Positions 474 through 17,491 of a DNA stretch of 17,715 nucleotides are shown here, piece after piece. Position numbers and translations under genes: made by a program. The DNA comes from an uncultured bacterium (lineage in GTDB: Bacteria; Abyssobacteria; SURF-5). Within the stretch, counting starts at the first letter, position 1. Each line of letters begins with the position of its first letter. The notes beneath the pieces were generated by a model, which saw only the letters and a list, made by a program, of their open reading frames with translations, searched no databases and was not told where the DNA came from. The stretch lies in the NCBI GenBank assembly GCA_964510165.1, contig CAZEBC010000069.1, forward strand, positions 1-17,715, in the 5' to 3' direction.

Positions 474-482
474 GTGGGTTTT

Positions 483-564: not shown

Positions 565-612
565 CTTCCTGTCAATCGAAAATCTGGGCGAGACGCCCTG
601 TAGTCTTGGGGA

Positions 613-2108
613 TTAATAGCTCCTCACCGCTGTGAAAAGGTTGTATTTGTAGCTGTAATGCGGCTCTCTCGCGAGCGAGAGCATGCGCGAAACTTCCTCA
701 TCAAGCCGGACCAGGCCACGCTCAGCCTCGGGCCAGTCTTCGGGCGCGATCTTGTCGGCCTGCTCGAGCAGCCCTTCATATACGGAAGAACTGGGAAAGC
801 CTGCCCGTGCGTTCACGTGCCAGGGGAACGTGGTTCGGAGTTTCCTGATGAACCAGTTGTGCTCTGACCCGAAGTCGAGAGCCGATTCATCCGTGAAATT
901 TGTCAAGTTTTCCAGCTTTTCGAAATCGATAAAACCGCCCTCGCGCGCGATCTCATACGCCTTCGTGTTCACGTAAGGGAAGAATACAGACCAGCGGAAT
1001 CGCCCCGGCCTTATGCGGGCAAGCAGATCAATGGTCTCAAAAATCTCGGCCATAGTCTCGTGAGGAAACCCTATGATCACGAAGGCGGAGGTGTGGAATC
1101 CGAACTTCTCCGCGATGGCGAACGCGTGCGCAATGTCGTCGTTCGACATGCGCCGGTTCAGTATCTCGCTTCTCACGCGCTCACTGCCGCTCTCAAGACC
1201 GAACTTGACGATGCGGCAGCCCGCCTCTTTCAGGTATCCGGCTCGTTCCTCGTCGAATGCCTTCACATGCGCGTTGCAGACAAAGGGAACCTTGAGCCGG
1301 GCGCTGTATTCTTTGCAGAATTCCTTCAAATAATCCTTGTTCAGCGTGAAAAGGTCGTCATCGAAGATTATGGTCTCGATGTTTCTGTACTTCGACATGA
1401 GCATCTCGATTTCTTCAATGACCTCGCTCACCGGATGATGCCGGATGTAGTTCAGCTTCGAGGCCGGACAGCTCAAATCCCGTTGGTAAAGTTCCCTCAG
1501 CCGGTGGTTGAAGCAATACGAGCAGTTGAATGGGCAGCCGCGTGAACTCATGATGCCGACCCATCCGTTCTTCAGGTCGATCATCTTCTGGAAGTCGAAT
1601 ATCTCGTAGTCTTTCTGAGGCAGCGATTCAAGCGGGACGAACGGGCGGACCTTGTTGCGAATGGTCTCGCCGTTGCGTTTGAGCCAGATGTTCCGTATTT
1701 CGGTCGTCGGCATGCCGCGCTCGAGGGCGTCGGCCAGTTCCACTATCGCCTGCTCGCCCTCGCCGACGCACACAAAATCGAAGCAGTCCTCCTTTAGCAC
1801 GCCCTCGGGGTCCATGGTGGGATGGATTCCGCCGCACACGATTGGCGCGCGGCAATACCTCTTTATGTCACGCGCAAGTTCGCGCGCGAAGCGGTACTGG
1901 TTTGTGACAACGGAGAACCCGATCAGGTCCGGCCTGAACGCCTCGATCTCGCGCCTCACGTCCTCCATGTCGAATTCAGACCCCATCTGCTCGTTCATGT
2001 TGATGAGCGCGGTTGTGTGTCCGTGTTGTTTCAGACACGCCGAGAGGAAGGCGACCCCGTAATTGAAGCCGACCTGACAATTCAGATTGGGATATATGAA
2101 CAGAACCT

Positions 2109-2112
<4 letters not shown>
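613..2112 (-). CDS. Cobalamin-binding-domain radical SAM protein (class B radical SAM methyltransferase-like)
   Basis: N-terminal B12-binding domain (YGVAFLSACLKQHGH, PDLIGFS, GGIHPT, GEGE), RGCPFNCSYC CxxxCxxC motif, DDLFT, GLESGS, IIGFPHET. ATGA overlap with gmhB. Confidence 0.9.
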
Positions 2113-2720
<608 letters not shown>

Positions 2721-2731
2721 CCAGTATCTCG

Positions 2732-4204
2732 CTATTTCCGCCGCTTGCCGTTGATGATGCGCGACATGATGCCAGTGCTCGATGAGCCTTCCACCAGCGG
2801 CGCAAGCTCCACCCGGCCGCCGTATGTTTCCACGAAATCGCGGCCTACGACGGTGTCCTTTGTATAATCGGCCCCCTTTACAAGGACATCCGGTCTGACG
2901 GCACGAATCAGTTTCAGCGGCGTGTCCTCTCCGAATATCACTATGTAATCCACCTGCTCGATAGCCGAAAGTATGAACGCGCGTTCATCCTGATTGAGCA
3001 CCGGCCTGCCCGCGCCTTTCAACTTCCGCACTGAACCGTCCGAATTGAGGCCGACGACGAGGATTTCGCCGTTCTTCTTCGCGAACTGGAACAGTTTAAC
3101 GTGTCCCACATGAAGCAGGTCGAAGCAGCCGTTTGTGAATACGATTTTCTGGCGACGCCGGCGATGCTCCTTGCAGATATTCGCGATCTCCTCGAACGAC
3201 TTCACCTTGTGGGAAGCGATGTGGCGCAGGCCGAGCAGTTCGCGGATGATCTCGGCCTTTGTCACCGGCGCGGCCCCGACCTTTCCGACGACTATTGATG
3301 CGGCCACATTGGCGATGTGGGCGGCCTCTTCGATGGTTCCTCCGACAGCGAGCATGTATCCCAACAGACTGAGTACAGTGTCCCCCGCGCCGGTTATGTC
3401 GAACACCGGCCTGGCTAGACCCGCGATATGGATCGGCTCGTCCGTCTTTCCGAAAATCGTCAGGCCGTCCGCTCCCTGCGTGATGACGACATAACGCGTG
3501 CCGGTCATTTTTCGGAGCCGGTTGCCCGCCTGTTTGAGCGAGGTCCCGTCGCTAATATCGATGCCCGAAGCCTCGGATGCCTCGAGTTTGTTCGGCTTCA
3601 AGACCGTGCATCCCCTGTAGCATCTATAATCCCGCTGGCGCGCCGGATCGACAAGCACGGGCTTCCCACGTTCGTTACAGGCCGCGATGACCCGGCCGAT
3701 GAGAGAGTCGGGGATTGCACCTTTACCATAGTCCGATAGCAGCACCGCGTCACAATTCGGGAGGAGGTCGGTGATGCATTTGAGCATGGCCGTTTGGAGA
3801 CTGTCGTCGAGGCCCATCACAGTTTCTCTGTCCACTCGCAGGAGTTGCTGGCTGTGGGCAATCATGCGCGTCTTGACTGTCGTCGGCCTGGTTTTGTCCT
3901 TGACTACGGCGGAGGTATCGATTTTGAGATTCTTGAGCAGACGAAAAAGCTGGCGGCCGTTCATATCGTCGCCGACGGCCCCGCAACAGAAGACGCGCGC
4001 TCCAAGCGCGGCAAGATTCGCGGCCACATTGCCCGCGCCCCCGGGGCGCGGCTCTTCCGATTCCACCTTGAGCACCTGCACCGGGGCTTCGGGAGAGACC
4101 CGCTCGACGCTTCCCCACACATACAGGTCGAGCATCAGGTCGCCGACTACCATGATGGCCGGGGAACGGGCCGTCTCGAGGCGCTGCAAGAAAGGGTCTT
4201 TCAT
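2732..4204 (-). CDS. hldE: Bifunctional heptose 7-phosphate kinase / heptose 1-phosphate adenylyltransferase
   Basis: GDLMLD, RVSPEAPV, GGAGNVA, SDYGKG, DITGAGDT (PfkB kinase) plus FTNGCFDLLHVGH and LVKGADY (nucleotidyltransferase). Start moved to ATG 4204 because of its purine-rich SD-like sequence and ATGA overlap with the upstream gene. Confidence 0.95.
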   Translation of the reverse strand: MKDPFLQRLETARSPAIMVVGDLMLDLYVWGSVERVSPEAPVQVLKVESEEPRPGGAGNVAANLAALGARVFCCGAVGDDMNGRQLFRLLKNLKIDTSAVVKDKTRPTTVKTRMIAHSQQLLRVDRETVMGLDDSLQTAMLKCITDLLPNCDAVLLSDYGKGAIPDSLIGRVIAACNERGKPVLVDPARQRDYRCYRGCTVLKPNKLEASEASGIDISDGTSLKQAGNRLRKMTGTRYVVITQGADGLTIFGKTDEPIHIAGLARPVFDITGAGDTVLSLLGYMLAVGGTIEEAAHIANVAASIVVGKVGAAPVTKAEIIRELLGLRHIASHKVKSFEEIANICKEHRRRRQKIVFTNGCFDLLHVGHVKLFQFAKKNGEILVVGLNSDGSVRKLKGAGRPVLNQDERAFILSAIEQVDYIVIFGEDTPLKLIRAVRPDVLVKGADYTKDTVVGRDFVETYGGRVELAPLVEGSSSTGIMSRIINGKRRK

Positions 4205-5157
4205 ACCTTCCTGCCTCCTGCCTCGCACAGAATCCCCATGCGCAAGAGCGGCAGCATGATTTCGTGATGGCCCGTTATGGAATACCCCTGTTTGGTCGGC
4301 CTGCCGACGACATTCGTGTTCGGGCGGTAATGCTGGTGCATGTCGAGATTGACGGTGATGAACTTCCCCGCGTTACCGCCCAGATTGCGGGCGGCGGTAA
4401 GCGCTTTGAGGAACACCTCGGGCAACACGACCGCCGAGCCGATGTTCATCCATACTCCGCCGGCGAGGTCGGCGACAATCGAGATGAGCGTTCGAAAATC
4501 GCGGTGGCTGGCGGCAGCCAGTTCCTCGGGCTGATAGCTCGGATGCATGCACACAGTGTCGGTTCCAAGCGCCAGCGCCACGATGGCCGGCAGCCCAAGC
4601 TCCGCTGCGGCGGCCAAAACGCTATATTGGGCATACTCGCTGTTTCCCGACAGTATGACCTTGCCCAGCGCGCTGCCCAGGCCGATGTCTTCCTTCGCGG
4701 CAAGGTTTGCCGCCCGCGTGAATGCCTCCGGCGTCTCCCGCGCCATCCCGAACGAGCCGTCCTTGAGCGTCGCGGCCACGTCCTCTGAGGTGCATCCCAC
4801 AAGCGAAATCTCATAATCATGGATCGCCGTTGCTCCGTGCATAGCGACCGCCGTGATGAATCCCCTCTGCAGCAGGTCTATCAGTACAGGTCCGAGCCCG
4901 CACTTGACCACATGGCCGCCGATCGCAGCCACAACCGGCCTGTTTTTCTTTCGAGCGGCAACAATTCCCTTGACCACACTCCTCAGAACAGACGCCGCGA
5001 ACACGTCGGGAAGCGACGAGAGAAAATCGCTGCAGGCGGCGTTGGCTTCGGGCACTCCAGCAAATTGCCTGACCGATACCTTGGTCTTGCGATCATGAAT
5101 GCTGTGAGTATGGATGCTCGTGAGGTCCGCCGGTTTGTAATCTTTTCGTTTGGTCAT
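4201..5157 (-). CDS. Conserved hypothetical protein, deoxyhypusine-synthase-like fold (resembles the GSU2086 family)
   Basis: Motifs GGHVVKCGL, GATAIHDYEI, TSEDV, GSFGMARET, GSAVVLPEVFLK, HYRP, GHHEIMLPLL, which I recall from a family found beside hldE in Deltaproteobacteria. Start moved to ATG 5157, just downstream of the lpxL stop. Confidence 0.7.
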   Translation of the reverse strand: MTKRKDYKPADLTSIHTHSIHDRKTKVSVRQFAGVPEANAACSDFLSSLPDVFAASVLRSVVKGIVAARKKNRPVVAAIGGHVVKCGLGPVLIDLLQRGFITAVAMHGATAIHDYEISLVGCTSEDVAATLKDGSFGMARETPEAFTRAANLAAKEDIGLGSALGKVILSGNSEYAQYSVLAAAAELGLPAIVALALGTDTVCMHPSYQPEELAAASHRDFRTLISIVADLAGGVWMNIGSAVVLPEVFLKALTAARNLGGNAGKFITVNLDMHQHYRPNTNVVGRPTKQGYSITGHHEIMLPLLRMGILCEAGGRKV

Positions 5158-5164
5158 TTCGGTT

Positions 5165-6058
5165 TCAGTATATTGGTTGTTCACCGTGGGGCCGCGTACG
5201 CCACCTTCGATGCACCCAGAACCATTGCGAGGGGTACCTGCGGATGTAGTCTTCCAGGGTGTTCGCACATTTCTGCGTAATGGCAAGTGCGTCAGCTTCC
5301 ATATCGTCGGTGCGAGTGACCTCGATGGGGCGCTCGATTATAAGCCTGTGCTTGCCCGGTCCTTCCCGCAGCATGAACACGGGCACGAGTGCGGCGCCCG
5401 TCCTCAGGGCAAGCATCGCAGGGCCGGCCGTGGTCGCCGCCTTCATCCCAAAGAAGTCCACGAACACATTCCCTCTGCGCGTGTTCTGATCGGCAAGTAT
5501 TCCCACGATCTCGTTTTGCTTCAAGCGTTTTACCACTCGATAGGCCGAACGACGTTCGATCACCTTCAGGCCGGAGGATTCCCTGATTTTACGTACTATC
5601 CGTTCGAGGTCGGGGTCGTCGAGCGGACGCGCCACCGCAGAAATCGGGTATCCAACCATCGCCCCTGCCGCCGCCATTAATTCCCAGTTGCCGAAGTGGG
5701 AAGCGACCAGCACTACCCCTTTTCCCGATTTCAGGCACTCGTCCAACCGCTCGCGATGTTCCGGCGAGATGATGGCCATGGCTTTTTCGGGTGAGAGCGC
5801 CGGTATCTGCAGGAATTCTACCACTGTCTGGCCCATATTGCGAAAGACGGCGCGAGTGATTTCCCTTATCTGGCTCTTGGAGAGGGCGTCTCCGAAGGCC
5901 AGGCGCAGGTTCTTGCAGGCCACACTCCGATGACGCCTGTCCACAAAATATGCGATGTCTCCCAGCACGATGCCCACTTTCGCTGCCGTGCCGGGCGACA
6001 GGCGGCCGAACAACAGTGTGAATGCCGCCGCTAGCCATTTCAGTATCGCTCCCTTCAT
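5165..6058 (-). CDS. lpxL: Lipid A biosynthesis late acyltransferase (LpxL/HtrB family)
   Basis: NLRLAF, HFGNWEL catalytic motif, LADQ, FVDFFG, IRRYPSQWFWVHRRW. Confidence 0.88.
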   Translation of the reverse strand: MKGAILKWLAAAFTLLFGRLSPGTAAKVGIVLGDIAYFVDRRHRSVACKNLRLAFGDALSKSQIREITRAVFRNMGQTVVEFLQIPALSPEKAMAIISPEHRERLDECLKSGKGVVLVASHFGNWELMAAAGAMVGYPISAVARPLDDPDLERIVRKIRESSGLKVIERRSAYRVVKRLKQNEIVGILADQNTRRGNVFVDFFGMKAATTAGPAMLALRTGAALVPVFMLREGPGKHRLIIERPIEVTRTDDMEADALAITQKCANTLEDYIRRYPSQWFWVHRRWRTRPHGEQPIY

Positions 6059-6110
6059 CTGTCAGAATCTTCGCAAATCCTTATTCCATAAGGCCCTACA
6101 GTTTGCCTAT

Positions 6111-6139
6111 ATTATAGAGAAGAGGCTGCCAAAACTCAA
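6111..6139 (-). promoter_or_regulatory. Putative sigma70 promoter of the LPS operon
   Basis: Minus strand TTGAGT-N17-TATAAT, about 50 nt upstream of the lpxL start. Confidence 0.6.
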
Positions 6140-6154
6140 GGGCCACCGGCCGTC

Positions 6155-7591
6155 TCACGCCTCCACGCCCGCCATCCGTTTCGCCATCGTCGCGTACTGC
6201 TGGAGCGGCGCCTCGAACAGTATCATCATCTTCTGAGCCTCCATCGAGCCTTCGGCATGGACGGTGGTTATCTCCATGTGCGCGTGCTCGGCAGAGGCAA
6301 CTGCGCGATGAGCCTGCTCGATCAGTCGGAGCCGCTGTTCCGTGGTGAACCGCTCGGATCCCCCGAGATAGTGTTCCATGTAATCGTGCGTGGCCGGGTT
6401 CATCCAGTCCCTATATGTCGGCGCGGTTGTGATAATGCCGCCGCAAATGTCCTGGATTAACTTGATGAAGTTGTGATAATTCGAAGCGAAATGAAGCTTG
6501 GCCATGTTGGTCACGAGAGGGTTGGGCACGGCCATCTCGCCATACATGATCGGGTCTTTCGCCGCGGCGCGGGTGAGCGCCTTCAGCGTTTCAACGTAAG
6601 CGGCAATTTCGGCCAACTTGCCTCGTATATGGCCTATCTTTTCCAGGCCGTTCGCCTCCGCCATTGCGACTGCGCAGCCAGCCAGCATCTCCACCACGGG
6701 AATCTTGTAGCTGACCGCAGTGAACCGATGAAAACTCGCGAATGTGTAAGCGAGCAGCATCGAGAACTGCCACTCGCCGCACATGAACACCCGCTCCCAT
6801 GGGATAAACACGTTGTCGAACACGATCATCGCCTCACTCAGGGCGCGGACCGGAACATCGTTGGGGAATTCATACTGGCTGCGCTCGCCGCGGCCGGGCC
6901 TGCATATCATGGTGATCCCCTCGGCATTGGCCGGGACTGCGAAGCTGAGCGCGTAGTCGCCCTCATCCTCGCGCATTTGGCGCGTCGGCGTGACGATGAT
7001 CTCATTGGCCACGGGCCCGCTCGTGATGTGCATCTTGCAGCCTTTCACGACGATGCCGTCTTTTCGCTTGTCGACAACATGCAGATAATAGTCCGGATGC
7101 TTCTGTCGTGACGGCGGCCTGCCTCGGTCGCCCTTGGCGTCGGTCACCGCTCCGCACATGGCGAGGTCGTTCTTCTTGAGGTAACGCAGGAAATTCTTCG
7201 CCCGCTGTTTGTACTCCTCGTTTCCCATCTGGTCGGCGACCACCATGACGGCGTTGAGGCAGTCGGTACCCACGTCCTTACCAAACGGAAGCCCGCCCGT
7301 CAGCCTGATGGATTGCGCAATCATCTGGCTGCGCCGCTCCAGGTCCTCAACGGCCCTGGGCGGCTTGAAGAATCGGCTTATCGGCTCGCCTGTCTCCTCG
7401 TCTTCCGCCACGAATAACGTGCGAACCGCAGGGTCCTCCACCTCGGTCAGCACAAAATCCTGCGCCACGGTCTCGACGGCGACCTTGAGAATCGGGTGGG
7501 TAGTCACGTCGTCGACTTTCTCGCCCAAAATGAAAACGCGCCTGCCGTCACGCAGGCTCTGCCTGTATTGCTCCGGAGTTCTGAGCGCCAT
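6155..7591 (-). CDS. 4-hydroxybutyryl-CoA dehydratase / 4-hydroxyphenylacetate 3-hydroxylase (HpaB) family flavoprotein
   Basis: RTPEQYRQSLRDGR, VTDAKGDR, HPDYYLHVVD, GIVVKGCKMHIT, EAMIVFDNVFIPWERVFMCGE. Start moved to ATG 7591, which is preceded by AAGGAGG. Confidence 0.88.
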   Translation of the reverse strand: MALRTPEQYRQSLRDGRRVFILGEKVDDVTTHPILKVAVETVAQDFVLTEVEDPAVRTLFVAEDEETGEPISRFFKPPRAVEDLERRSQMIAQSIRLTGGLPFGKDVGTDCLNAVMVVADQMGNEEYKQRAKNFLRYLKKNDLAMCGAVTDAKGDRGRPPSRQKHPDYYLHVVDKRKDGIVVKGCKMHITSGPVANEIIVTPTRQMREDEGDYALSFAVPANAEGITMICRPGRGERSQYEFPNDVPVRALSEAMIVFDNVFIPWERVFMCGEWQFSMLLAYTFASFHRFTAVSYKIPVVEMLAGCAVAMAEANGLEKIGHIRGKLAEIAAYVETLKALTRAAAKDPIMYGEMAVPNPLVTNMAKLHFASNYHNFIKLIQDICGGIITTAPTYRDWMNPATHDYMEHYLGGSERFTTEQRLRLIEQAHRAVASAEHAHMEITTVHAEGSMEAQKMMILFEAPLQQYATMAKRMAGVEA

Positions 7592-7657
7592 ATCGCTTGC
7601 CTCCTTCTTGAATTGCAATTGGAGTCGGAGACACTTATCTCATAAGAAGCATGATTC

Positions 7658-7686
7658 ATTATACGGGGGCGCAGACGGCAGGTCAA
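7658..7686 (-). promoter_or_regulatory. Putative sigma70 promoter of the HpaB/AbfD-family gene
   Basis: Minus strand TTGACC-N17-TATAAT. Confidence 0.65.
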
Positions 7687-7703
7687 TTGGAAATATGATG
7701 CGA

Positions 7704-8969
7704 TTACAGCCCGCCTGCGAGGGCGCGATTGGCCGTCTTCTTGAATGCGGCGGCTATCTGGTCGAGATAATCCCGGCACGGAACGTGGAACCCGATGCTT
7801 GGGAGCACCAGTTCCTCGCTCGAGCAGCGCCGTTCAGCTACGGGACAATCACCCGGCTGATATTCCACCTGGCGGGCCGCATGGCTGCAACTCCACGGAC
7901 AGCCCTTTCCCCAGAAGCGGCGCTCCTGCATGCGCGGCCTGAGGTGAATTGGAACCCTCACGTAACTCGTGGTCTCCAGCCCCTCGAGCGCGAGCGCATT
8001 GCGGAAAGTCTCCAGTGGGACACTGTTAAGTTCGTCAGCCTTATAGATCAGTGGTATCATGTGGACCGCATGTGTGCAGTCGGGCGCCACATAGGTCGGC
8101 CTGATGCCGGGTATGTCCGCCAACTGTCGCGTGAGGTATGCAAGGTTTTCCTGACGCTGCGCGACCCATTTGTCAAGCCGTTTGAGCTGGACACCTGCAA
8201 TCGCAGCCGAAACCGGATGCATCCGGAAATTCGGCGCGATACTGTCGATGTACCTGCCGAGCGGACTGTCCTGCAGTTCCTGAAACTGGCGCATCGGATG
8301 CGAGGCCCAGCTTACGACCTCGTCAAAGAGCGATTCGTCGTCGAACACCAGGATGCCGCCTTCTCCACCGATCAGGTTCTTCGAGGCCTGTATGCTGAAG
8401 CAGCCGACATCGCCCAGGCTGCCGACTTTCGCGCCTTTATAGGTCGCTCCGTGCGCCTGCGCGCAGTCCTCGATTACCCGAAGCCCATATTCTCGCGCTA
8501 ATCGCATAATGGGCTCCATGTCGCATGGGTGACCGTAAATGTGAACGCACACGATCGCCTTGGTGCGGCTCGTGATATTCTTCCTGATCTCATCCGGACG
8601 CATGTTAAATGTCTGGGGGTCTATGTCGGCAAAGATGGGGATGGCGTTGTTGTGGAGGATGCAGCCGACGGTCGCGCCCCATGTGTAGGGTGAGACGATG
8701 ACCTCGTCGCCCGGACCCACTCCGCACACGTGAAGCGCGGTGTCAAGCGCTGCCGTACCGCTGCTGACCGCAAACGCAAACTTGCGGCCCTGATACCGGG
8801 CAAAATCGTCCTCGAAATCCTTGATCACGCCGACCTGCATTACCGGCGAAAGCGACTCTTCCTTGAGGACTCTGACTACCGATTGGATGATCTCGTCGTC
8901 TATGACCGGCCATGGCGAAGGCGATATCGTTACCGTTCTTTCCGTTTCATCTTGGCGTGTCCGCTCCAT
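7704..8969 (-). CDS. DegT/DnrJ/EryC1/StrS family PLP-dependent aminotransferase
   Basis: SSGTAAL, GPGDEVI, VHIYGHPCD, IEDCAQAHGA, FSIQASKNL (PLP lysine), GEGG; SD AAGGAAGG. Confidence 0.92.
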   Translation of the reverse strand: MERTRQDETERTVTISPSPWPVIDDEIIQSVVRVLKEESLSPVMQVGVIKDFEDDFARYQGRKFAFAVSSGTAALDTALHVCGVGPGDEVIVSPYTWGATVGCILHNNAIPIFADIDPQTFNMRPDEIRKNITSRTKAIVCVHIYGHPCDMEPIMRLAREYGLRVIEDCAQAHGATYKGAKVGSLGDVGCFSIQASKNLIGGEGGILVFDDESLFDEVVSWASHPMRQFQELQDSPLGRYIDSIAPNFRMHPVSAAIAGVQLKRLDKWVAQRQENLAYLTRQLADIPGIRPTYVAPDCTHAVHMIPLIYKADELNSVPLETFRNALALEGLETTSYVRVPIHLRPRMQERRFWGKGCPWSCSHAARQVEYQPGDCPVAERRCSSEELVLPSIGFHVPCRDYLDQIAAAFKKTANRALAGGL

Positions 8970-9184: not shown

Positions 9185-9214
9185 AAAAAGCCGCCCGAAA
9201 AAATCTCGGACGGC
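9185..9214 (-). terminator. Rho-independent terminator after tRNA-Leu
   Basis: Minus strand GCCGTCCGA-gattttt-TCGGGCGGC hairpin followed by TTTTT. Confidence 0.8.
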
Positions 9215-9216
9215 GG

Positions 9217-9301
9217 TGCGGGGAGGGGGACTTGAACCCCCACGGGAGCAATTCCCGTCAGCCCCTCAAGCTGGTGTGTCTGCCAGTTCCACCACCCCCG
9301 C
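9217..9301 (-). tRNA. tRNA-Leu (anticodon GAG)
   Basis: Minus strand GCGGGGG TGGTGGAACTGGCAGACACA CCAGC-TT GAG GG-GCTGA CGGGAATTGCTCCCG T GGGGG-TTCAAGT-CCCCC TCCCCGC A folds into a cloverleaf with a long variable arm. The next bases are CCG, so CCA is not encoded. Confidence 0.97.
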
Positions 9302-9314
9302 AAGCTGCATTTTC

Positions 9315-9343
9315 ATTATAGCCGCAACCTCGAGAATTGTCAA
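9315..9343 (-). promoter_or_regulatory. Consensus sigma70 promoter of tRNA-Leu
   Basis: Minus strand perfect TTGACA-N17-TATAAT, 13 nt upstream of the tRNA 5' end. Confidence 0.85.
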
Positions 9344-9388: not shown

Positions 9389-10054
9389 TCATATCTTCCT
9401 CAAGGATGAAACCATCTTCAAAGCTTCCTTGAGCGCGTTCGAGGCGCTGTCGGCGGTGCCGTCCGCGCCGAACTTGTGAACGATTTCCTCCGTGACCGGA
9501 GCGCCGCCGATCATGATCTTGACATTCGGGTTCCTTTCGCGAATCAGCTTGATCACGCGTTCCATGCCGAGCATGGAGGTCGTCATCATCGCCGACAGAC
9601 AGACAAGCTCGGCGTTCGTCTTGAGCTGTTCCGCGACGAAACTCTCGAGCGGGACGTCCTTGCCCAAGTCGTGCACCTCGAAGCCGGCGACCTCGAACAT
9701 CATCTTTACCAGATTTTTTCCGATATCATGCACGTCGCCCTGAACGGTGCCGATAACCACGACCCCCTTCGTCTTCTGCGTGTCTTCTATCTTCATGTGG
9801 GGCCTCAGGATGCTTAGGCCCGAATAAAGTGCGTCCGCGCACAAGAGCAGTTCCGGCACGAAGTATTCCTCTTCTTCCCATAGGCGGCCCGCCTCCTCCA
9901 TCCCTTTGGCCAGCCCGTTCATAATGGCGTCATACGCATCAAGCCCGAGTTCGATTACTTCATTTGCGGCCTTTACCACCTCGTCCTCTTCGAATTTGAG
10001 GACTCCGTCGGCCAGTCTCTTGAGCAGTTCGAGTCGCTTTGCTTCGTCTGCCAT
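9389..10054 (-). CDS. Methyltransferase cognate corrinoid protein (MtaC/MtbC family)
   Basis: Cap domain GLAKGM...YFVPELL, base-off/His-on motif GDVHDIGKNLV, LSAMMTT, IGGAP. Start moved to ATG 10054 (MADEAKR, preceded by GAAGGGA). Confidence 0.93.
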   Translation of the reverse strand: MADEAKRLELLKRLADGVLKFEEDEVVKAANEVIELGLDAYDAIMNGLAKGMEEAGRLWEEEEYFVPELLLCADALYSGLSILRPHMKIEDTQKTKGVVVIGTVQGDVHDIGKNLVKMMFEVAGFEVHDLGKDVPLESFVAEQLKTNAELVCLSAMMTTSMLGMERVIKLIRERNPNVKIMIGGAPVTEEIVHKFGADGTADSASNALKEALKMVSSLRKI

Positions 10055-10083
10055 TTTGTGTTCCCTTCTCTGAAGTCTTGCCT

Positions 10084-11112
10084 TTAAGCTCTTCGCATGC
10101 TTCTCACCGTGCGAACCAGCGCCTCCATGTTCTCCTTTGGGGCTGTCGGCCAGATATCGCAGCCCGGCCATACCGCATCCACTCCGCCGCTCACGCAGTC
10201 CTTGACCGCCTTTTCGACGTCGGCGGGAGTACCCCTCACGAGCACGTTAAAGGGATCGAAGTTGCCCAGCAGAATCGGTTTGGGTCCGATGGCGGCCCGC
10301 GTTTCGCTCAGTTCGTTCTTCTGATCGACGCTCAGCGCGTGTGCCCCACATCGGTTCATGGAGTCAATGATCGAGTTGGTCTTGCCACAGATGTGGAGCA
10401 CTAATCTCCCCTTCGAATTATTAAAAATCCGCCTCAGATGCGGCTCAACAAGCTTCTTGAAAAGGGCGGGCCGCAACACATCGGAGCATGCGCCCATCTC
10501 GCGAATGGTAATGTAGTCGGCGCCCGCCTCGAAATAAATCTCGGCAAATTCTATCACGAGGTCGGCATAAAGACGCAATACCTCGTCCACGCGCTCCGGG
10601 TTCTTCAGGCATATCTTCAGCAGGTCGTTCAATTCCATCGTCTGACCGGCGATGGTAAACGGACCCATCACATATGTGCCAATAGCGACGTTATCGCCGA
10701 TATCCCGCTTCAACATGCGAATGGCCTCGATGACCACCGGTACCCTGCCAGCGCCGGAAAGCCTGGCGGGAACGCGCACGTCCGCCGCCGATGCAACCAC
10801 CTTTTCTTTCACAGTCGGGTAGAGGATTTCCTCCGGATTGACATTCGTATAGAAGTTGATCGGACATCCGAGCGCCTCGGCCTCGATCGCGACATCGAAG
10901 GGAACCACTGCGCAATCGAACCCGAACAGCTGGTAGGTCGTGGCCGCCAGCGTTGCCATCTTGCGCGCATCGGTATGCGCTTCGGCAAAACGAACTCCGG
11001 TCTGCTTCATCCCTTCTATCGTGACGTTTCCCATCCCGCTGAAACACAGGATTCCCCCGTCACGCCTGCCGTCCAACAGATTCAGAACTTTTTCTCGTGA
11101 ATTCACGCGCAT
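10084..11112 (-). CDS. MtaA/CmuA-family methyltransferase (uroporphyrinogen decarboxylase fold, Zn-thiol type)
   Basis: PFDVAIEAEALGC, GRVPVVIEAI, GPFT, LHICG and PGCDI (H-x-C...C zinc ligands), GNFDP. Confidence 0.88.
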   Translation of the reverse strand: MRVNSREKVLNLLDGRRDGGILCFSGMGNVTIEGMKQTGVRFAEAHTDARKMATLAATTYQLFGFDCAVVPFDVAIEAEALGCPINFYTNVNPEEILYPTVKEKVVASAADVRVPARLSGAGRVPVVIEAIRMLKRDIGDNVAIGTYVMGPFTIAGQTMELNDLLKICLKNPERVDEVLRLYADLVIEFAEIYFEAGADYITIREMGACSDVLRPALFKKLVEPHLRRIFNNSKGRLVLHICGKTNSIIDSMNRCGAHALSVDQKNELSETRAAIGPKPILLGNFDPFNVLVRGTPADVEKAVKDCVSGGVDAVWPGCDIWPTAPKENMEALVRTVRSMRRA

Positions 11113-11123
11113 ACTCCTTGTTC

Positions 11124-12065
11124 CTATCCCCTCAATTGCTCCACAAAGTCCTTGAACAAGGTTCCAAGCGGATGCCGAACCTCCGGAAGCTCACCGCTCT
11201 CCGCGTATCTGAACGTTGCCTTGATTGACTCTGCCACCGCCGCAGCCGCAAACACTCGCTCGGCGCCCGGCATCGGGCCGAAGAAAAGGAAGTCGCTCCA
11301 TAACAGCGCCGCGATCGCGTGCGCCGCCGCATCGGCCCCAACGAAACTGGACCGCGACCCGAATCGCCGTATCTCCTCCCACATGTACGTCCCGTTTGCG
11401 GGAGAACACCCCACGGGGAGTCCAAAGCGTTCCTTGATCTCAAAACCGGCCTGCATCGAAAATGCCATGGCCGCCAGATTCATCACCGTCGTGTCGATCA
11501 GAATGCTGTTGAATTCACCCTTCTTGACGATGGGCAACAACCTCTCGAGCGATTTGAGCCTTCCACTGGCGAGTTTGTCGGCCTCATCGAACACTGCAAC
11601 CACCACATGGCGCACCCCGGCCCCGGCCAGTTCCTCAACTTCCGCTGAAAGGTTGGGGTTCCATGGGTTCAGGCTGTTGTAAACAAGCCGGTCGAGCAGC
11701 CCGGCGCCCGACGCCCTCCTGGCCGTCTCGATCCTTACCTCAGGACGCCAGGAGTCGATGCACAGAGGAATCTTCGTTTCGGCGGCGACGAAGTCCAGGT
11801 AGCCCATCAATTCATCAGCCGAGTTGCCGATGAGGTCCACCATTGCCGGAATCGCGGTCTGCTCCGAGAATTCCTCCAGGCGTTTGATTTGAGCGCGCGC
11901 GGCCTCTTTGTCAAATGAGCCTTGTTTCCGGTTTCGCAGCAGCCTGTCACCCTTGTGGAACATCGAGCCGATAAGGACGGTCGGAATCGCTCCCGGCTGC
12001 CCGCCCACCTTCACGCCGCCGATGTCAAATACTTCTTGCTCTTTCTGGAATCTGAAGTGATTCAC
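11124..12065 (-). CDS. MtrH/MtgA/CmuB-family pterin-dependent methyltransferase (tetrahydromethanopterin S-methyltransferase subunit H-like)
   Basis: N-terminal F.FQKEQEVFDIGGVKVGGQPG..PTVLIGSMF is the MtrH signature; also IDS, VYNSLN, GLPVGC, DFLFFGP. GTG start. Confidence 0.88.
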   Translation of the reverse strand: MNHFRFQKEQEVFDIGGVKVGGQPGAIPTVLIGSMFHKGDRLLRNRKQGSFDKEAARAQIKRLEEFSEQTAIPAMVDLIGNSADELMGYLDFVAAETKIPLCIDSWRPEVRIETARRASGAGLLDRLVYNSLNPWNPNLSAEVEELAGAGVRHVVVAVFDEADKLASGRLKSLERLLPIVKKGEFNSILIDTTVMNLAAMAFSMQAGFEIKERFGLPVGCSPANGTYMWEEIRRFGSRSSFVGADAAAHAIAALLWSDFLFFGPMPGAERVFAAAAVAESIKATFRYAESGELPEVRHPLGTLFKDFVEQLRG

Positions 12066-12312: not shown

Positions 12313-14256
12313 TCATCCGGGCAACATTCCCTCAAGACTTGGAAAATGGTCGGACATATGGGGAAAGTGCATTGCCTCAACGAATTCCCGCTCGAACTCC
12401 TTTTCCAGTGTCAGTTCCACATACTCCACGCGGCGGGCCTGCTCCTCGGCTTCACGTCTCTTATTCACATCCAGCAGTGCCATTCGCGCGCCGTCGCCGG
12501 CCGCGTTGCCGACCGCGATGACGTTCTCAATCGGACAATCCGGAAACATACCCATTACCATCGCGCAGGTGCGGTCAATGTATGTTCCAAAAGCCCCCGC
12601 CAGCACCACGCGGTCAACCTTTTCGACGCCCAGCTTGCGCATCAGGATTTTCGAACCGGCATAGATGGCGCCCTTCGCAAGTTGCACCGCGCGCACATCA
12701 CCCGCCGTGATGGTGATGTCCCTGCCGATGGCGGTTTCTTCTTTCGGCACAAGCACGAATTCGCGCGTCTTGCCGTCTTGAATGAGCCTGGACGTGGTGA
12801 GCGACTTGTTGATCCTGCCGCTCTTCTCGATGACGCCAGCCCGGAACATCTCCGCTATCGCATCTATTATGCCTGACCCACAGATGCCGCGGGCAAGCTG
12901 ATGGTCCTCTCCCGCGATGATCTTGTATTCCACTTTGAACGTTTCGGGATTGATTGCGACCCGTTCCACTGCGCCCGGTGCGGCACGCATCCCAAACTTT
13001 ATATGCGCGCCCTCGAGCGCCGGACCCGTCGCGCACGACGCCGCCAACAGCCTGTCGCGATTGCCCACCAGAATCTCGCCGTTCGTGCCGATGTCGATGA
13101 TGAGTTGCATCTCATCCTTCTGATACGGCGCCTCCGCGATCAAGACTCCTACATTGTCCGCCCCCACAAACCCGGCTTCGTTCGGCAGTACGTGAACATT
13201 GGCGGAGTCATTGACCGCAATCCCGAGTTCCTTCGCCTTCACGTCGAGCGCGCTCTGCACCGCAGGCACAAACGGCGATACGCCCACGCCCACCGGCGTG
13301 ATATTGAGGAACAAGTGGTGCATGACCGTGTTGCCGACCACGCACAACTCGAGAATATCGTCGGGGCAGATTTCCGCTTTCTCACACACGTGCGATACGA
13401 TTTCGTTCATCGCCCCGATTATCTCGCGATGCAACTCTTCGAGGCCGTTTTCATGCGTCATGATGTAGGTGACGCGCGACATGACATCTTCGCCATATGC
13501 GACCTGCGGATTCATGAACGAATGGGTGGCGGCGACCTCTCCGGTGGCGAGATTACAGAGATATCCGGCGACGGTTGTCGTGCCAATATCAACCGCGAGG
13601 CCGAAACACTTCATCGAGCCGCCCGGCACAACCCGCAATATCTCGCGGTTCATCCAGACTGCGACCGAAACCTCCCAATTGCCGTCACGGAGCGCGCGAG
13701 GGAGCCTTGCCAGAACATCCCGTCCCGCTCTCAAGCCGATTAATCCATGCTGCGACTTCAACCCTGCGGTCAGCCGTTCGTAATCTCCGAGCGGGTCGGC
13801 CAGTGTGGGTTTTTCCAACTTCGCCGTATGGACTCTGACGGCGGGATTAAGCTCGATCTTGCGGAGAGTGACTTCCTTTCGGACAACCTGTTTGCCGCCC
13901 CGGCTCTCCTCGGGAACATGGATGAGCGCATCGCCCTGAACTTGTGTCGCGCATGCCAACCGGTAGCCCTCTGACAGTTCCTCATCAGTCAGGAACTTCT
14001 TTTCTTCACTTGTGAGAGGAGAAAGATGCTCCGTCCGGCTTTGGATGCCGTGACGCTCGAAGAAGCCCTCCAGCACTCGGACCTTGCATTTGCCGCACGT
14101 CTTCTTGCCGCCGCACACAGATTCGATATCAACGCCAAGCTCGCGGGAAACCTCGAGGAGGTTCTTGCCCTCCTCGACTCGTCCGCGTTGGCCGGAGGGC
14201 TGGAAGATTATGAGATGGTTCCGCAAAATTCGCTCCTTATTCCTGTTCTCCCCCAT
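12313..14256 (-). CDS. ATP-dependent reductive activator of corrinoid proteins (RACo/RACE; N-terminal 2Fe-2S + ASKHA domain)
   Basis: CGGKKTCGKC...RLAC [2Fe-2S] motif, DIGTTT, NPQVAYGEDVMSR, GNTVMHH, FVGAD, DIGTNGE, GPALEG, GICGSG, QLAKGA, LAGAFG, GNAAGDGA. An alternative TTG start at 14226 has an AAGGAG SD. Confidence 0.93.
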   Translation of the reverse strand: MGENRNKERILRNHLIIFQPSGQRGRVEEGKNLLEVSRELGVDIESVCGGKKTCGKCKVRVLEGFFERHGIQSRTEHLSPLTSEEKKFLTDEELSEGYRLACATQVQGDALIHVPEESRGGKQVVRKEVTLRKIELNPAVRVHTAKLEKPTLADPLGDYERLTAGLKSQHGLIGLRAGRDVLARLPRALRDGNWEVSVAVWMNREILRVVPGGSMKCFGLAVDIGTTTVAGYLCNLATGEVAATHSFMNPQVAYGEDVMSRVTYIMTHENGLEELHREIIGAMNEIVSHVCEKAEICPDDILELCVVGNTVMHHLFLNITPVGVGVSPFVPAVQSALDVKAKELGIAVNDSANVHVLPNEAGFVGADNVGVLIAEAPYQKDEMQLIIDIGTNGEILVGNRDRLLAASCATGPALEGAHIKFGMRAAPGAVERVAINPETFKVEYKIIAGEDHQLARGICGSGIIDAIAEMFRAGVIEKSGRINKSLTTSRLIQDGKTREFVLVPKEETAIGRDITITAGDVRAVQLAKGAIYAGSKILMRKLGVEKVDRVVLAGAFGTYIDRTCAMVMGMFPDCPIENVIAVGNAAGDGARMALLDVNKRREAEEQARRVEYVELTLEKEFEREFVEAMHFPHMSDHFPSLEGMLPG

Positions 14257-14395: not shown

Positions 14396-16177
14396 TCAGC
14401 CTTCAATCTGCCCCGCAATGCGCACCGCAAGCATGGCCACCTTTTCGGCCCGCTCGCGTGCCCCGGGAATCGCTGTCGAGATAAACCCTCCGGCTTCGGC
14501 GAGTTGCGCGGCCTCTTGAGGCGAATGCCTTCCCATTGCCGCCGCCACGGCGGCAGGAACAGTAATGTTCAGGATAATATTCGATCCCATGAGCATCTCA
14601 TTTAGCGGAACGGCGGCAAACGGGATGAACGACAACACGCTTTCATCCTTCTCCCGGACTGCTTTCGGAATTACTTTGTGGGCCAGTCCCTCGAAGCGCA
14701 TGGTCTGGTCTCCGATGGTAATCTCGACATCGGCGTCAACATCGAAACTCAAGTGCCGCTTTGCTATGTCGTCCGGCCTCCGTGCCCCGCACGCTATCTT
14801 GGAGAACCTGATGCCTATTTCCTGTCCCATTTGTTTCATAAAATAGGTGGTGGCGCCTTTTTCAGCCGAGACCTGTCGCTCCTCGTCGAGCGCTCTGACA
14901 ACGGAGCCCAAATCGGCCCCCTCCGAGAGCATCACGTATGCTTTTTCGGCGCGGCGACGAACGGCCTCGATCTTGATCCCTTCCGTTCCGCGGATAATGG
15001 CTCGCGTGACAGGTCCTCGCCGCAGTTGCTCGGCCTTCCGGGCCACCACATTGGCCGACACTTTCCCGATTTCCGGGTCCATGAAGTATTCGTGCCGCAC
15101 ATCGTGAACGATAGTCGCCGCCATTTCCTCGTCACCGTTGTGCTCGATGAGCGCGAGAAGAGAGATGACTGCGTCAGTGGTGACCCGGCTGAGCACGCTG
15201 GCGACCGGTCCGCTGCCTCCGCCGCAGCCGATCCAGCCGCCTTCTTTGAAGCAGCCCAGTGTGTCGTCAAGCGTAATCATCGCCATGACGCTGGGTCCGC
15301 CGATATCCTTCAGGATCAATCCCAGGTCTCCCACCACCTTCGCCGTGTCAACCTCGCGGTCAATGCCCTTGATATGCAGCGTTTCCGGCAGACCAGTGGC
15401 CATAACCGCTCCCTGGCCGGCAAGCTGAGTGGAATTGATCTTGCTGTAGTTCCCGTATTCCGGCGAGACGCGGGCATCGGGATGCACGATCTCGAGAATA
15501 GCCGCAGCCCCGAAGAGCGCCGACATGATCCGGTTCGGCTGCATCCCCGCTCCCGCGTAAGCGTTCATCATCGCCTCCGCCCCTATGCGGGCGCCCTCCC
15601 TCGCCATGGCGGGATATACGATATCCTCTCCGAGCGCCGAATGCCCATAGATGGGCCCCCGGGCGACGCCATTGGGGACAAGCCGGCCGTCTATCGGGCT
15701 TAGCTTCCCTTCCTCCATAGCACGGTAGATGGCCATCACCGCCGGAAACCCCGAAATCTTGCTGTTTGTCTTCGGGGTGGGAACGGCCACCACCCCGCAG
15801 CGGTCCGCGCCCGCAATCATGCGCGCCATGGCCCCCAGCTTGCGGTTGCCCGCCGCAACACCGGCCTGAACATTCGAGCCCGCGAAATAAATGAGCACCG
15901 CACTCAGGAGCGCCGCATTGGCGGCATCGGCGCCCGCTGCCTTCGCGGCGCTGATGCACTCCTGGAGAACGTGATCGAGCGGGATTTCGGGCGCATTCTC
16001 TGAAGTCACCTTCAGCCTGGTCCCTCGCAGAAATTCTTCCGCGATCACGTTCGCGATAGAGAACACCGCGAAACTGAGCATCCCGTGGCCTTTCATCAAC
16101 GCCTCGAGACGGTCGCACGTCATGAGGTCAACATCCGCTATCGAGGCCGTCATCGCGGCGAGGACTTCTTTCTTCAT
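14396..16177 (-). CDS. Hypothetical protein (593 aa, Ala/Gly-rich, apparently soluble, no family recognised)
   Basis: Long ORF with protein-like composition, AAGGA SD, co-oriented and tightly packed between the LarC-like gene and RACo. Confidence 0.85.
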   Translation of the reverse strand: MKKEVLAAMTASIADVDLMTCDRLEALMKGHGMLSFAVFSIANVIAEEFLRGTRLKVTSENAPEIPLDHVLQECISAAKAAGADAANAALLSAVLIYFAGSNVQAGVAAGNRKLGAMARMIAGADRCGVVAVPTPKTNSKISGFPAVMAIYRAMEEGKLSPIDGRLVPNGVARGPIYGHSALGEDIVYPAMAREGARIGAEAMMNAYAGAGMQPNRIMSALFGAAAILEIVHPDARVSPEYGNYSKINSTQLAGQGAVMATGLPETLHIKGIDREVDTAKVVGDLGLILKDIGGPSVMAMITLDDTLGCFKEGGWIGCGGGSGPVASVLSRVTTDAVISLLALIEHNGDEEMAATIVHDVRHEYFMDPEIGKVSANVVARKAEQLRRGPVTRAIIRGTEGIKIEAVRRRAEKAYVMLSEGADLGSVVRALDEERQVSAEKGATTYFMKQMGQEIGIRFSKIACGARRPDDIAKRHLSFDVDADVEITIGDQTMRFEGLAHKVIPKAVREKDESVLSFIPFAAVPLNEMLMGSNIILNITVPAAVAAAMGRHSPQEAAQLAEAGGFISTAIPGARERAEKVAMLAVRIAGQIEG

Positions 16178-16198: not shown

Positions 16199-16699
16199 TC
16201 ACAAGTCGAGCTCTATTTGATCGTTCCCGTTCATTATCTGCGATTCGAGGCGCCCGCGCAACTTCGACAGTGAAACTCTTGTCTTTAGTTTCTGCTCCAC
16301 TTGCTCGCGCAATCGCACGAGGTCGGCGTGCTCGACCCGGCAATCGCCCGTCCCGTGCCCCGATACCTTGGAATGGATGTGTGTTTCCAATCGAGTGCGG
16401 CCTTTCCGAATGATCACCGTGTGGCTTTGCTGCCGACATCGAGAACAGTAATGAGAAGTGAGAATTCGATGATAGCCGTAAACCGACAATTCCTCTGCCA
16501 AAAGACGCGCCCATTTGGCCTCATCATCCGGGTCGATGTCAATCAAAAGCACACAACTGGGGCGGTTTCTCTTGGTTGTTCCGGGCAACGCATGCACGTT
16601 ACGCGCGCCCCACCGCATGATCTGGTCAATCGCAAAGCCCAACTCCTCGCCCGTAAGGTGGTCCACCTGAGCCAGAATCAGCATTCCATCCTTCTTCAT
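16199..16699 (-). CDS. LarC-family (nickel insertion protein) C-terminal-domain-only protein (LarC2-like)
   Basis: AQVDHLTGEELGFAIDQIMRWGARNVHALPGTTKRNRP resembles the LarC C-terminal pattern (xNxDDxxxExxGxxxxxLxxxGAxDVxxxPxxMKKxRP), and RVEHADL resembles KPEYED. ATGA overlap with tetR. Confidence 0.72.
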   Translation of the reverse strand: MKKDGMLILAQVDHLTGEELGFAIDQIMRWGARNVHALPGTTKRNRPSCVLLIDIDPDDEAKWARLLAEELSVYGYHRILTSHYCSRCRQQSHTVIIRKGRTRLETHIHSKVSGHGTGDCRVEHADLVRLREQVEQKLKTRVSLSKLRGRLESQIMNGNDQIELDL

Positions 16700-17388
16700 T
16701 GGCTCTCCCGGCGAGGCTTGCCCCGCCTCCTTCCGCTGGATGGCGAAAGCAGCCCCTTCAGCCAGTCCATCATGCGGTCCACTATCCGGGTGTGTGTGGC
16801 TTCATCTGCGCTGAACGGCATATGAAAAAATTCCTCCAGGCGGATGCGATGGTATTCCGAAACAAATCCGGCGTAAAGGAAGAAGCAAAGGCTGCTGACA
16901 AGGTGGGCCGTCATCTCAACGTCAATGTCCGGCCGGACTTCCCTCCGCTCGATGCCCTCGACCAATATCGCGCGGATGTTCTTGAACACCGTGGACTCGG
17001 CGCGTTGCGTGACTTCCCGAGCGAAGGGGTCCATGTCGGATGTGCCGAGTTGCAGCAGTATTCGAAATGTATCGTTCCGGGCTTCCGTCTCGGTCTGCTT
17101 ATTTTCCAGAAGCATTCGGATTTTCTGGAGGCAGGTCGCCTTGGCGCCAAGTACACTGCGCATGTACTCATCCTTGCCTTGAACCTGTCGCTCAATTACC
17201 GCACGATACAAGTCCGCCTTGCTCTCGAAATATTTGTAAAGAGCTCCATTGCTGATACCCGCGCGCTCGCAGATGTCGTTGATGTTCGCCTTGTGGTAGC
17301 CTTGTCTGGCGAATTCTATCTGGGCCGCGCGCAGCACGCGGTCTTGCTTTTCTTTCGGGATATTCTGGAACGTTCTGCCCGGCGCCAT
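16696..17388 (-). CDS. TetR/AcrR family transcriptional regulator
   Basis: TFQNIPKEKQDRVLRAAQIEFARQGYHKANINDICERAGISNGALYKYFESKADLY HTH. ATG 17388 is preceded by AGGAG and is preferred over TTG 17412. Confidence 0.93.
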   Translation of the reverse strand: MAPGRTFQNIPKEKQDRVLRAAQIEFARQGYHKANINDICERAGISNGALYKYFESKADLYRAVIERQVQGKDEYMRSVLGAKATCLQKIRMLLENKQTETEARNDTFRILLQLGTSDMDPFAREVTQRAESTVFKNIRAILVEGIERREVRPDIDVEMTAHLVSSLCFFLYAGFVSEYHRIRLEEFFHMPFSADEATHTRIVDRMMDWLKGLLSPSSGRRRGKPRRESQ

Positions 17389-17436
17389 TGCAACGCTCCT
17401 GTGTCTGCGCAAATGTGCGTCGCCTGCATGGAGATG

Positions 17437-17462: not shown

Positions 17463-17491
17463 ATTATACCGACCCACCTCCTCCTTGTCAA
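17463..17491 (-). promoter_or_regulatory. Consensus sigma70 promoter of the tetR-larC2-hypothetical cluster
   Basis: Minus strand perfect TTGACA-N17-TATAAT. Confidence 0.82.

Follow-up and report, generated by a model that had tools for sequence, protein, structure and literature searches.

The stretch of DNA analysed here (the window: 17,715 nucleotides (nt), contig CAZEBC010000069.1, from an uncultured bacterium of the Abyssobacteria) encodes a 593-amino-acid protein, which we call X593, next to a stand-alone paralogue of the LarC2 domain of LarC, the nickel-pincer cyclometallase; we call this paralogue S-LarC2. From the gene associations of this pair, we propose at roughly even odds (a probability of about 0.5) that X593 is a new client enzyme of the nickel-pincer cofactor, with its own LarC2-type loader. 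X593 probably belongs to nickel-pincer cofactor biology and not among the methyltransferases encoded downstream of it. The two genes are as follows:

14396-16177, minus strand: X593, a 593-amino-acid ATG-to-stop open reading frame (ORF), member of an unannotated, highly conserved family
16199-16699, minus strand: S-LarC2, a 166-amino-acid stand-alone LarC2 paralogue (PF01969, E 5.2e-14, profile positions 246-370 of 375)

The X593 family

The initial annotation had placed an unrecognised 593-residue protein at 14396-16177 without giving a strand. We confirmed the ORF, which is read from the minus strand; on the plus strand the corresponding frame is broken by internal stops. An AAAGGA motif about 10 nt 5' of the start is a plausible ribosome-binding site, and the GC fraction by codon position is 0.64/0.46/0.72. 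Of 7999 candidates scored in a word-indexed search, 835 were relatives at E<=0.001, and 261 relatives were detected in a collection of one genome per species covering 185,579 species; with this many relatives, the gene can be taken as real. As first described, the protein is rich in Ala (15.2%) and Gly (9.9%) and has no long transmembrane segment, its Kyte-Doolittle maximum over 19 residues being 1.6.

No named family accommodates X593. Searches against Pfam and NCBIfam returned 0 families at E<=0.01, and searches of PDB sequences, made with the single sequence and with the family profile, gave nothing significant. Judged by name, the best 120 of the 835 relatives are all "hypothetical" or "uncharacterized", and none of these carries a precomputed Pfam domain. 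Our literature search, which lay outside the supplementary tables of PMC13524815, found no paper on the family or on a stand-alone LarC2 paralogue; a search by Rhizobium accession numbers and locus tags likewise found none on the family.

The relatives include proteins of Methanobacterium, Methanobrevibacter, Methanothermobacter, Methanosarcina and Methanocella, as well as of varied bacteria. Carriers comprise four methanogen orders (rumen Methanobrevibacter among them), acetogens, syntrophs, rhizobial symbiosis-type plasmids and many bacterial phyla. In a tree built by a quick method and rooted at the midpoint, the window clade adjoins methanogens with strong support, whereas its S-LarC2 and its gene order look bacterial-type.

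Conservation within the family is high. An alignment of 28 sequences has a mean column identity of 71%, and among 76 full-length genome sequences the median pairwise identity is 50% (minimum 38.5%), with 63 invariant residues. The six motifs quoted in the initial annotation, LEIVHPDA among them, are all present (residues 109, 133, 174, 228, 283 and 308). The potential metal ligands proposed within them stood only in part: the motif His, Asp and Glu residues are invariant in 76/76 sequences, whereas the cysteines are not conserved (C127 44/76, C309 9/76, C318 6/76). Motif residues invariant throughout are N111, R112, K113, R119, R126, K136, H179, E184, D185, E229, H232, D234, K290, D291 and E312. 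The invariant set as a whole includes H31, H179, H232, K113, K136, K290, five arginines and eight acidic residues.

A family profile searched against 1.84 billion representative proteins gave 235 hits at E<=0.001. The best 150 of these are all members of the family or fragments of them (14 have at least 580 amino acids, the longest 627), and they contain neither remote families nor fused X593-LarC2 forms. By these comparisons the family appears to be a compact, slowly evolving island, without remote relatives or fusions. Two apparent X593-LarC2 fusions of 745 and 795 amino acids (loci L056 and L052) were rejected because the X593 and LarC2 matches fall in different frames; they are artefacts of longest-ORF picking in GC-rich DNA.

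As the initial annotation had suggested, we modelled the protein and compared its fold. The AlphaFold2 model, built from the family alignment, is confident (predicted local distance difference test (pLDDT) 86.5, predicted template-modelling (TM) score 0.90) and describes a mostly helical single body. Foldseek comparison with 350,542 PDB chains returned 0 matches at E<=0.001 and no TM-score above 0.17, the best match being to designed helical repeats (E 0.16, TM 0.17), and gave no hit to a characterised family. The ESM Atlas yielded no usable match for X593 or for its Methanobacterium homologue P0048. With respect to LarA, X593 has no match to any Pfam family, PF09861 included, and no PDB match in sequence or fold that would make it a member.

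S-LarC2, the constant partner

We fetched 80 of the 261 detected X593 loci, to which all counts out of 80 refer. A neighbouring S-LarC2 was found by tblastn with the window protein in 76/80 loci, and an S-LarC2 profile detected a same-strand copy adjoining X593 in 78/80. The two loci without one, L059 and L076, are cut contigs and cannot be judged: in L059 the X593 match reaches the contig end, and in L076 there are 55 bp upstream of the match, the side on which related Lachnospiraceae loci have S-LarC2. Of the 78 partners, 65 lie downstream of X593 and 13 upstream. Their distance has a median of 60 bp and exceeds 300 bp in three loci only; in the window the gap is 21 nt. We found no third conserved partner in the Pseudomonadota or Actinomycetota loci, where the upstream ORFs without Pfam domains are singletons.

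Pairwise identities of X593 and S-LarC2 correlate across 59 loci (Spearman 0.80), as shared descent alone could cause. Of the two, X593 is by far the slower to evolve (median identity 50%, against 30% for S-LarC2). This fits a catalytic subunit, since such subunits tend to be conserved.

Judged from alignment and model, S-LarC2 has the homology and the fold of LarC2. Alignment with the C-terminal domain of LarC by hhalign gives a probability of 99.2% over 147 columns, so that the likeness to the LarC2 domain extends over the whole length of the protein. The S-LarC2 model (pLDDT 94.3) matches the LarC2 crystal structures 6bwo and 6bwq in Foldseek at E about 1e-9 and TM-scores of 0.76-0.78 (6bwo: E 6.9e-10, TM 0.78). 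Residues common to S-LarC2 and genuine LarC2 are D13, K43, K/R44, R46, H83, K111 and E123.

S-LarC2 also appears to form a lineage of its own within the LarC2 relatives. Its signature, N34 together with D54, is present in 60/60 copies, whereas D and I/L occupy these positions in 18/18 genuine LarC C-domains taken from the same loci, and a single branch with 97% support splits the two groups. The S-LarC2 profile scores S-LarC2 copies at 84-204 bits and genuine LarC C-domains at 20-96 bits; conversely, the NCBIfam LarC2 model gives S-LarC2 47-67 bits against about 94-112 bits for genuine domains, and the window copy reaches 47.4 bits on NF052512, where the cut-off is 50. S-LarC2 is not simply the LarC2 of the cell, since 18 genomic loci and the two annotated Rhizobium plasmid loci encode a full-length LarC next to it. 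MK0293 (PDB 3c19), from Methanopyrus kandleri, is a further LarC2-fold protein that stands alone and matches the S-LarC2 model (Foldseek E 2.5e-9). It differs in having Ala and Leu at the positions of N34 and D54 and is thus not of the S type. There are therefore at least two kinds of stand-alone LarC2.

Nickel-pincer genes beside the pair

All ORFs neighbouring the pair were clustered and the clusters named, over a search span of 8 kb. After S-LarC2, the most frequent neighbours of X593 are the nickel-pincer biosynthesis (lar) genes. They occur within 8 kb of the pair in 29/80 loci (LarB in 21, full LarC in 18, a LarC1-only gene in 7 and LarE in 6), and example neighbours score above the NCBIfam equivalog cut-offs. 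These loci span the Methanosarcinaceae, one Methanobacteriaceae locus, Bacillota, Nitrospirota, Pseudomonadota, Actinomycetota and a Balneolaceae contig. The Methanosarcinaceae row reads X593, S-LarC2, LarB, LarC; two Pseudomonadota loci (L053, L073) have LarE in addition. A Nitrospirota locus (L049) has the order LarE, LarB, X593, URO-D-type gene, S-LarC2, LarC1.

An independent collection, of plasmids, bears out this context: a tblastn search of it gave five records, four from Rhizobium and one from Ciceribacter. In Rhizobium sp. CCGE532 the row consists of X593 (annotated as hypothetical), S-LarC2 ("nickel insertion protein"), LarC, LarE, LarB and a HoxN/NixA permease; here LarE, annotated as an adenine nucleotide alpha hydrolase, is a single gene of 268 amino acids. 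The plasmid of R. tropici CIAT 899 carries the same row, but with a divided LarE:

L081 13607-14413 (R. tropici CIAT 899 plasmid): split LarE, two ORFs of 134 and 121 amino acids that correspond to the two halves of TIGR00268

The small proteins of these Rhizobium rows bear the S signature, and their LarC C-domains have the ordinary residues. The Rhizobium loci also contain amino-acid ABC transporter, C-S lyase, RidA and CMD genes, and L053 has an ABC transporter, CMD and a molybdopterin oxidoreductase in its surroundings.

We found no LarA (PF09861) in the 29 lar loci among 41 scanned of 43 non-redundant ORF clusters of 330-520 amino acids; two ORFs that are cut by locus ends were left out. 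LarB, LarE or LarC thus stand beside X593, with no LarA found, in 29/80 loci and in 2/2 annotated Rhizobium plasmid loci fetched. X593 occupies the place that, in what we take to be the classical layout of a lar operon, belongs to LarA. The initial annotation had offered a metalloenzyme matured by the LarC2-like neighbour as one possibility. This possibility is supported in part: the neighbour is indeed a near-constant companion and lar clusters recur around the pair, although the cysteine ligands envisaged for the metal are not conserved.

A candidate client of the pincer cofactor

Three considerations lead us to favour a client enzyme. X593 takes the client's place in lar clusters where no other client is present; its large size and slow evolution are what a catalytic protein would show, and it has invariant Lys, His and Arg residues suited to a ligand that carries thiocarboxylates, nickel and phosphate; and clients without the LarA fold have recently been shown to exist, according to the portion of PMC13524815 available to us. 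In that same portion, new clients of the nickel-pincer nucleotide were found through their position beside LarB, LarC and LarE, and the question of which enzymes outside the LarA family use the cofactor is presented as one that has only begun to be answered.

In the mechanism that we propose, X593 would be the large catalytic protein of a two-gene module, of which S-LarC2 is the second gene. The X593 apo-enzyme would receive the pincer cofactor made by LarB, LarE and LarC, and would act as a functional analogue of LarA on an unrelated, so far unseen fold. S-LarC2, predicted to keep the nucleotide-binding architecture of LarC2, would serve as a private adaptor of X593, binding cytidine triphosphate (CTP) and the pincer nucleotide and passing the cofactor, once activated or metallated, on to X593. 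Within X593, the invariant Lys, His, Arg and acidic residues would then hold the thiocarboxylates, nickel and phosphate of the cofactor.

Comparison with established users of the cofactor brings out both likenesses and differences. Like LarA, X593 takes the cofactor-user position, in clusters with LarB, LarE, LarC and a nickel transporter. LarA tethers the cofactor through a Lys and binds nickel through a His (PMC13524815, as far as its text was available), and X593 has invariant residues of both kinds. X593 differs in matching LarA neither in sequence nor in fold, in being about 170 residues longer, in possessing a private LarC2 paralogue, and in being far more conserved than the substrate-diverse LarA family. 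The NphT aldo-keto reductases, as described in the accessible part of PMC13524815, resemble X593 as non-LarA client candidates that adjoin LarB, LarC and LarE in the absence of LarA; they differ in having the PF00248 TIM-barrel fold and in that their cofactor binding was shown biochemically, whereas X593 has no known fold and is a candidate from gene associations. In intact mass, LarA and NphT gain 450 Da (PMC13524815). The Pfam co-occurrence step used there, so far as the excerpt describes it, would probably miss a family that has no Pfam model.

Some loci point towards a role in making the cofactor. A LarC1-only gene (PF01969 positions 1 to about 234) occurs in several Bacillota loci and in one Eggerthellaceae locus, following LarB in L057 and L063, and is the sole LarC form nearby in 7 loci. 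In four of the 80 loci it comes directly after S-LarC2, resembling the halves of a split LarC in reversed order:

L034 9852-11121: S-LarC2 followed by the LarC1-only gene
L065 9810-11076: S-LarC2 followed by the LarC1-only gene
L069 9833-11152: S-LarC2 followed by the LarC1-only gene
L049 12840-14128: S-LarC2 followed by the LarC1-only gene

No ordinary LarC2 was found within 8 kb in these four loci, where S-LarC2 probably serves the biosynthetic pathway and may serve LarC1. Such arrangements would suit a second LarC-like maturation enzyme, in which S-LarC2 cytidylylates a precursor and X593 replaces LarC1, inserting another metal, tailoring the cofactor or keeping a dinucleotide form for a client encoded elsewhere. 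The module would then, like LarC itself, pair a LarC2 core with a second, larger part, and its constant pairing does resemble a split two-domain enzyme. LarC2 is described as a hexameric CTP-binding core that is proposed to cytidylylate the precursor and then hand it to LarC1 (PMC13510736, in the part available), and a dinucleotide pincer cofactor is reported to exist (PMC13524815, likewise in part). X593, however, is a separate polypeptide that usually coexists with full LarC, and it shows no detectable similarity to LarC: hhalign against an alignment of LarC1-only and full-length LarC sequences gave a probability of 0.4%, and no homology to LarC1 was found. Its three invariant histidines form no histidine-rich patch, its size and median identity look catalytic rather than accessory, and no fused form appears in the best 150 of the 235 profile hits. 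Furthermore, apart from a reductase in three loci, no other obvious client is encoded in the Rhizobium and Methanosarcinaceae clusters. On balance, we regard a maturation role as unlikely, though it is the strongest competitor to a client role for X593.

Several observations weigh against X593 as a client. All functional evidence for its role is gene association. The window itself has no LarB, LarE or LarC within its 17.7 kb, and 51/80 loci have no lar gene within 8 kb. Since LarA and NphT, as known clients, manage without a private LarC2, the pairing might just as well reflect a role in biosynthesis. The very high conservation of X593 across differing contexts is unlike that of the substrate-diverse LarA family. 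In three Methanosarcinaceae lar loci the reductase just mentioned offers a different candidate, and the Methanobacterium and Methanocella loci have, in place of lar genes, NifX-like, MinD-ferredoxin and DUF134 genes around the pair. The reductase, an aldo-keto reductase fused to a 4Fe-4S domain, is represented by:

L074 5979-7178 (also in L014 and L024): aldo-keto reductase with 4Fe-4S dicluster domain, cluster c34

This fusion may be a second pincer client in L014, L024 and L074, because use of the pincer cofactor has recently been demonstrated for aldo-keto reductases encoded next to lar genes (PMC13524815, from the part of the paper at hand).

The 51 loci without lar genes would also suit an enzyme unrelated to the pincer cofactor, with S-LarC2 a PII-like nucleotide-sensing regulatory or structural subunit recruited from LarC2 and the lar genes nearby through shared nickel supply or regulation. 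The N-terminal half of the S-LarC2 model indeed resembles trimeric PII-like sensors (Foldseek E about 2e-3), and the contexts of the pair are very varied, with methyltransferases, methanopterin-type genes and amino-acid transporters among them. Yet lar genes recur beside the pair in at least six phyla and in differing gene orders, the plasmid rows with the nickel permease are tight and operon-like, and the invariant residues of genuine LarC2 are retained by S-LarC2. An unrelated enzyme therefore seems improbable to us.

Other neighbourhoods of the pair

A context of NifX-like, MinD-type ATPase-ferredoxin, DUF134 and DUF2124 genes surrounds the pair in L019, L028, L029, L037, L012, L060, L009 and L013. 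NifX-like genes (PF02579) are found in 14 loci, with 27 copies, and lie directly downstream on the same strand in L019, L029, L037 and L060. Of the other neighbours, DUF134 is found in 9 loci, DUF2124 in 7 and CbiA-ferredoxin genes in 6. These neighbours would fit a scaffold or carrier for another complex metal cofactor in methanogens. They are, however, seen in the mapped Methanobacterium, Methanocella and close archaeal loci, the universal partner of X593 is LarC2-like and not NifX-like, and X593 has no conserved cysteine for cluster binding. We consider a scaffold role quite improbable, less so only than the methyltransferase role discussed below.

Loci from Syntrophaceticus and a Syntrophomonadaceae bin (L020 10599-16201; L027, with the same clusters) have methanopterin-type C1 genes after the pair, namely DUF6513/pterin-binding, DUF447, GHMP kinase, Mpt_N dehydrogenase and ATP-grasp genes. 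Their X593 proteins branch beside those of Methanosarcinaceae. This placement suggests acquisition from archaea.

The corrinoid methyltransferase set of the window

The window row, read 5' to 3' on the minus strand, consists of a promoter-like site, TetR, S-LarC2, X593, RACo, MtrH, URO-D and a corrinoid protein. The features other than X593 and S-LarC2 are:

17463-17491, minus strand: promoter-like site, TTGACA-17 nt-TATAAT (12/12), upstream of the TetR gene
16696-17412, minus strand: TetR-family regulator (PF00440, E 9.1e-15)
12313-14256, minus strand: RACo-type corrinoid reductive activase with N-terminal 2Fe-2S domain (PF14574, E 8.8e-99; PF17651, PF17650, PF00111)
11124-12065, minus strand: MtrH-family methyltransferase (PF02007, E 1.1e-58; NF002142, 316.9 bits against a cut-off of 287)
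10084-11112, minus strand: URO-D/MtaA-CmuA family methyltransferase (PF01208, E 2.9e-69; TIGR01463, 263 bits against a cut-off of 235.4)
9389-10171, minus strand: corrinoid (B12-binding) protein (PF02310, E 4.6e-27; PF02607, E 2.6e-20)

The promoter-like site is a consensus match only, with 4 such sites found in the window against 2.8 expected. The TetR stop overlaps the S-LarC2 start (ATGA), and the gaps are 139 nt from X593 to RACo and 247 nt from RACo to the next gene. At its longest, the corrinoid-protein ORF runs 88 nt into the URO-D gene and begins with 39 basic, low-complexity residues; its true start is probably an internal Met near 10054.

The MtrH-family protein is a probable methyl-corrinoid:pterin methyltransferase (MT2), and the URO-D/MtaA-CmuA protein is likely the substrate-side methyltransferase (MT1) of the set. 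The Mto O-demethylase, as presented in the available text of PMC8630106, consists of MtoD with a 2Fe-2S domain, the MtrH-like MtoA, MtoB and MtoC. The window set has the same parts as this Mto/Mtv (MtoABCD) type: an activase with 2Fe-2S, an MtrH-like MT2, an MT1 of the MtaA/CmuA type and a corrinoid protein. The accessible portion of PMC8630106 mentions no X593 or LarC2-like gene. By domain content, the four genes downstream of X593 appear to form a complete set of the Mto/Mtv type without it.

The initial annotation had proposed X593 as a new MT1 family. Its position upstream of RACo, MtrH-like, URO-D-type and corrinoid genes, in the window and in L001 and L002, is what a substrate-specific corrinoid MT1 would have, and in L049, a second lineage with URO-D-type genes in the cluster, one such gene lies between X593 and S-LarC2. 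The proposal is not supported, because the URO-D-type methyltransferase already fills the MT1 slot and completes the four-part set. Queries with the window genes gave RACo, URO-D and corrinoid-protein matches in 3 loci each and MtrH matches in 4 (in L044 and L060 a distant MtrH-like match only), and 76/80 loci have no URO-D, RACo or corrinoid-protein gene within 8 kb. The full set accompanies X593 only in L001 and L002 (Abyssobacteria and Poribacteria, 84-88% identity to the window), which also have TetR upstream. Even in this lineage the adjacency of X593 and RACo is not fixed: a second URO-D gene lies between them in both loci, and L001 has another insertion there:

L001 11473-11931: DUF559 endonuclease-like gene, which together with the second URO-D gene separates X593 from RACo

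Moreover, X593 has no similarity to any MT1 family in Pfam or NCBIfam, and its family also occurs in aerobes such as Rhizobium and Paracoccus. An MT1 function is thus very improbable, and the link between X593 and methyltransferases appears specific to the window lineage. For X593 as a pincer client, we suggest that the module is probably co-transcribed with TetR and the methyltransferase set in the window. Given such co-transcription, hydride-transfer-type chemistry by X593 may prepare or process the compound that the set demethylates, as a lineage-specific link.

Two further features lie just beyond the corrinoid gene:

9215-9301, minus strand: tRNA-Leu(GAG), just downstream of the corrinoid gene, with its own perfect -35/-10 at 9315-9343
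9190-9214: strong terminator-like hairpin, after tRNA-Leu(GAG)

As the tRNA has its own promoter consensus and is followed by the hairpin, the terminator would belong to the tRNA and not to the operon. The remainder of the window (3-8969, minus strand) resembles a sugar/lipopolysaccharide-core cluster. It encodes a DegT-type aminotransferase, an HpaB-like flavin monooxygenase, a lipid A acyltransferase, a HAD phosphatase, a PfkB kinase fused to a cytidylyltransferase-like domain (HldE-like), a B12-binding radical SAM protein, a 361-amino-acid protein with a weak Rossmann match only, and part of a heptosyltransferase.

Implications for nickel-pincer biology

For the window, the reading of the operon is corrected: its methyltransferase system appears complete on its own, and X593 is assigned, from its gene associations elsewhere, to nickel-cofactor biology. 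The results also reveal a second lineage of LarC2, of stand-alone proteins, a finding relevant to the activation and transfer of the cofactor.

Many genomes contain LarB, LarC and LarE, and it is suspected that some archaea possess a pincer enzyme yet to be identified (PMC11796402 and PMC8305020, each in the part available). X593 is a concrete and testable candidate for a pincer client, with no annotation, no known fold and a diagnostic partner gene. More tentatively, at somewhat less than even odds, we suggest that X593 is the first member of a nickel-pincer enzyme class of new structure, that, unlike LarA or NphT, it is loaded by way of a LarC2-type adaptor of its own, and that it is the missing user where there is no LarA. 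If so, X593 would be the user of LarB, LarE and LarC in methanogens, acetogens and other organisms without LarA, and the adaptor would imply either that the cofactor is delivered in a new way or that it is a variant. The near-identity of the family from archaea to rhizobia would then mean a single, widespread and still unknown reaction.

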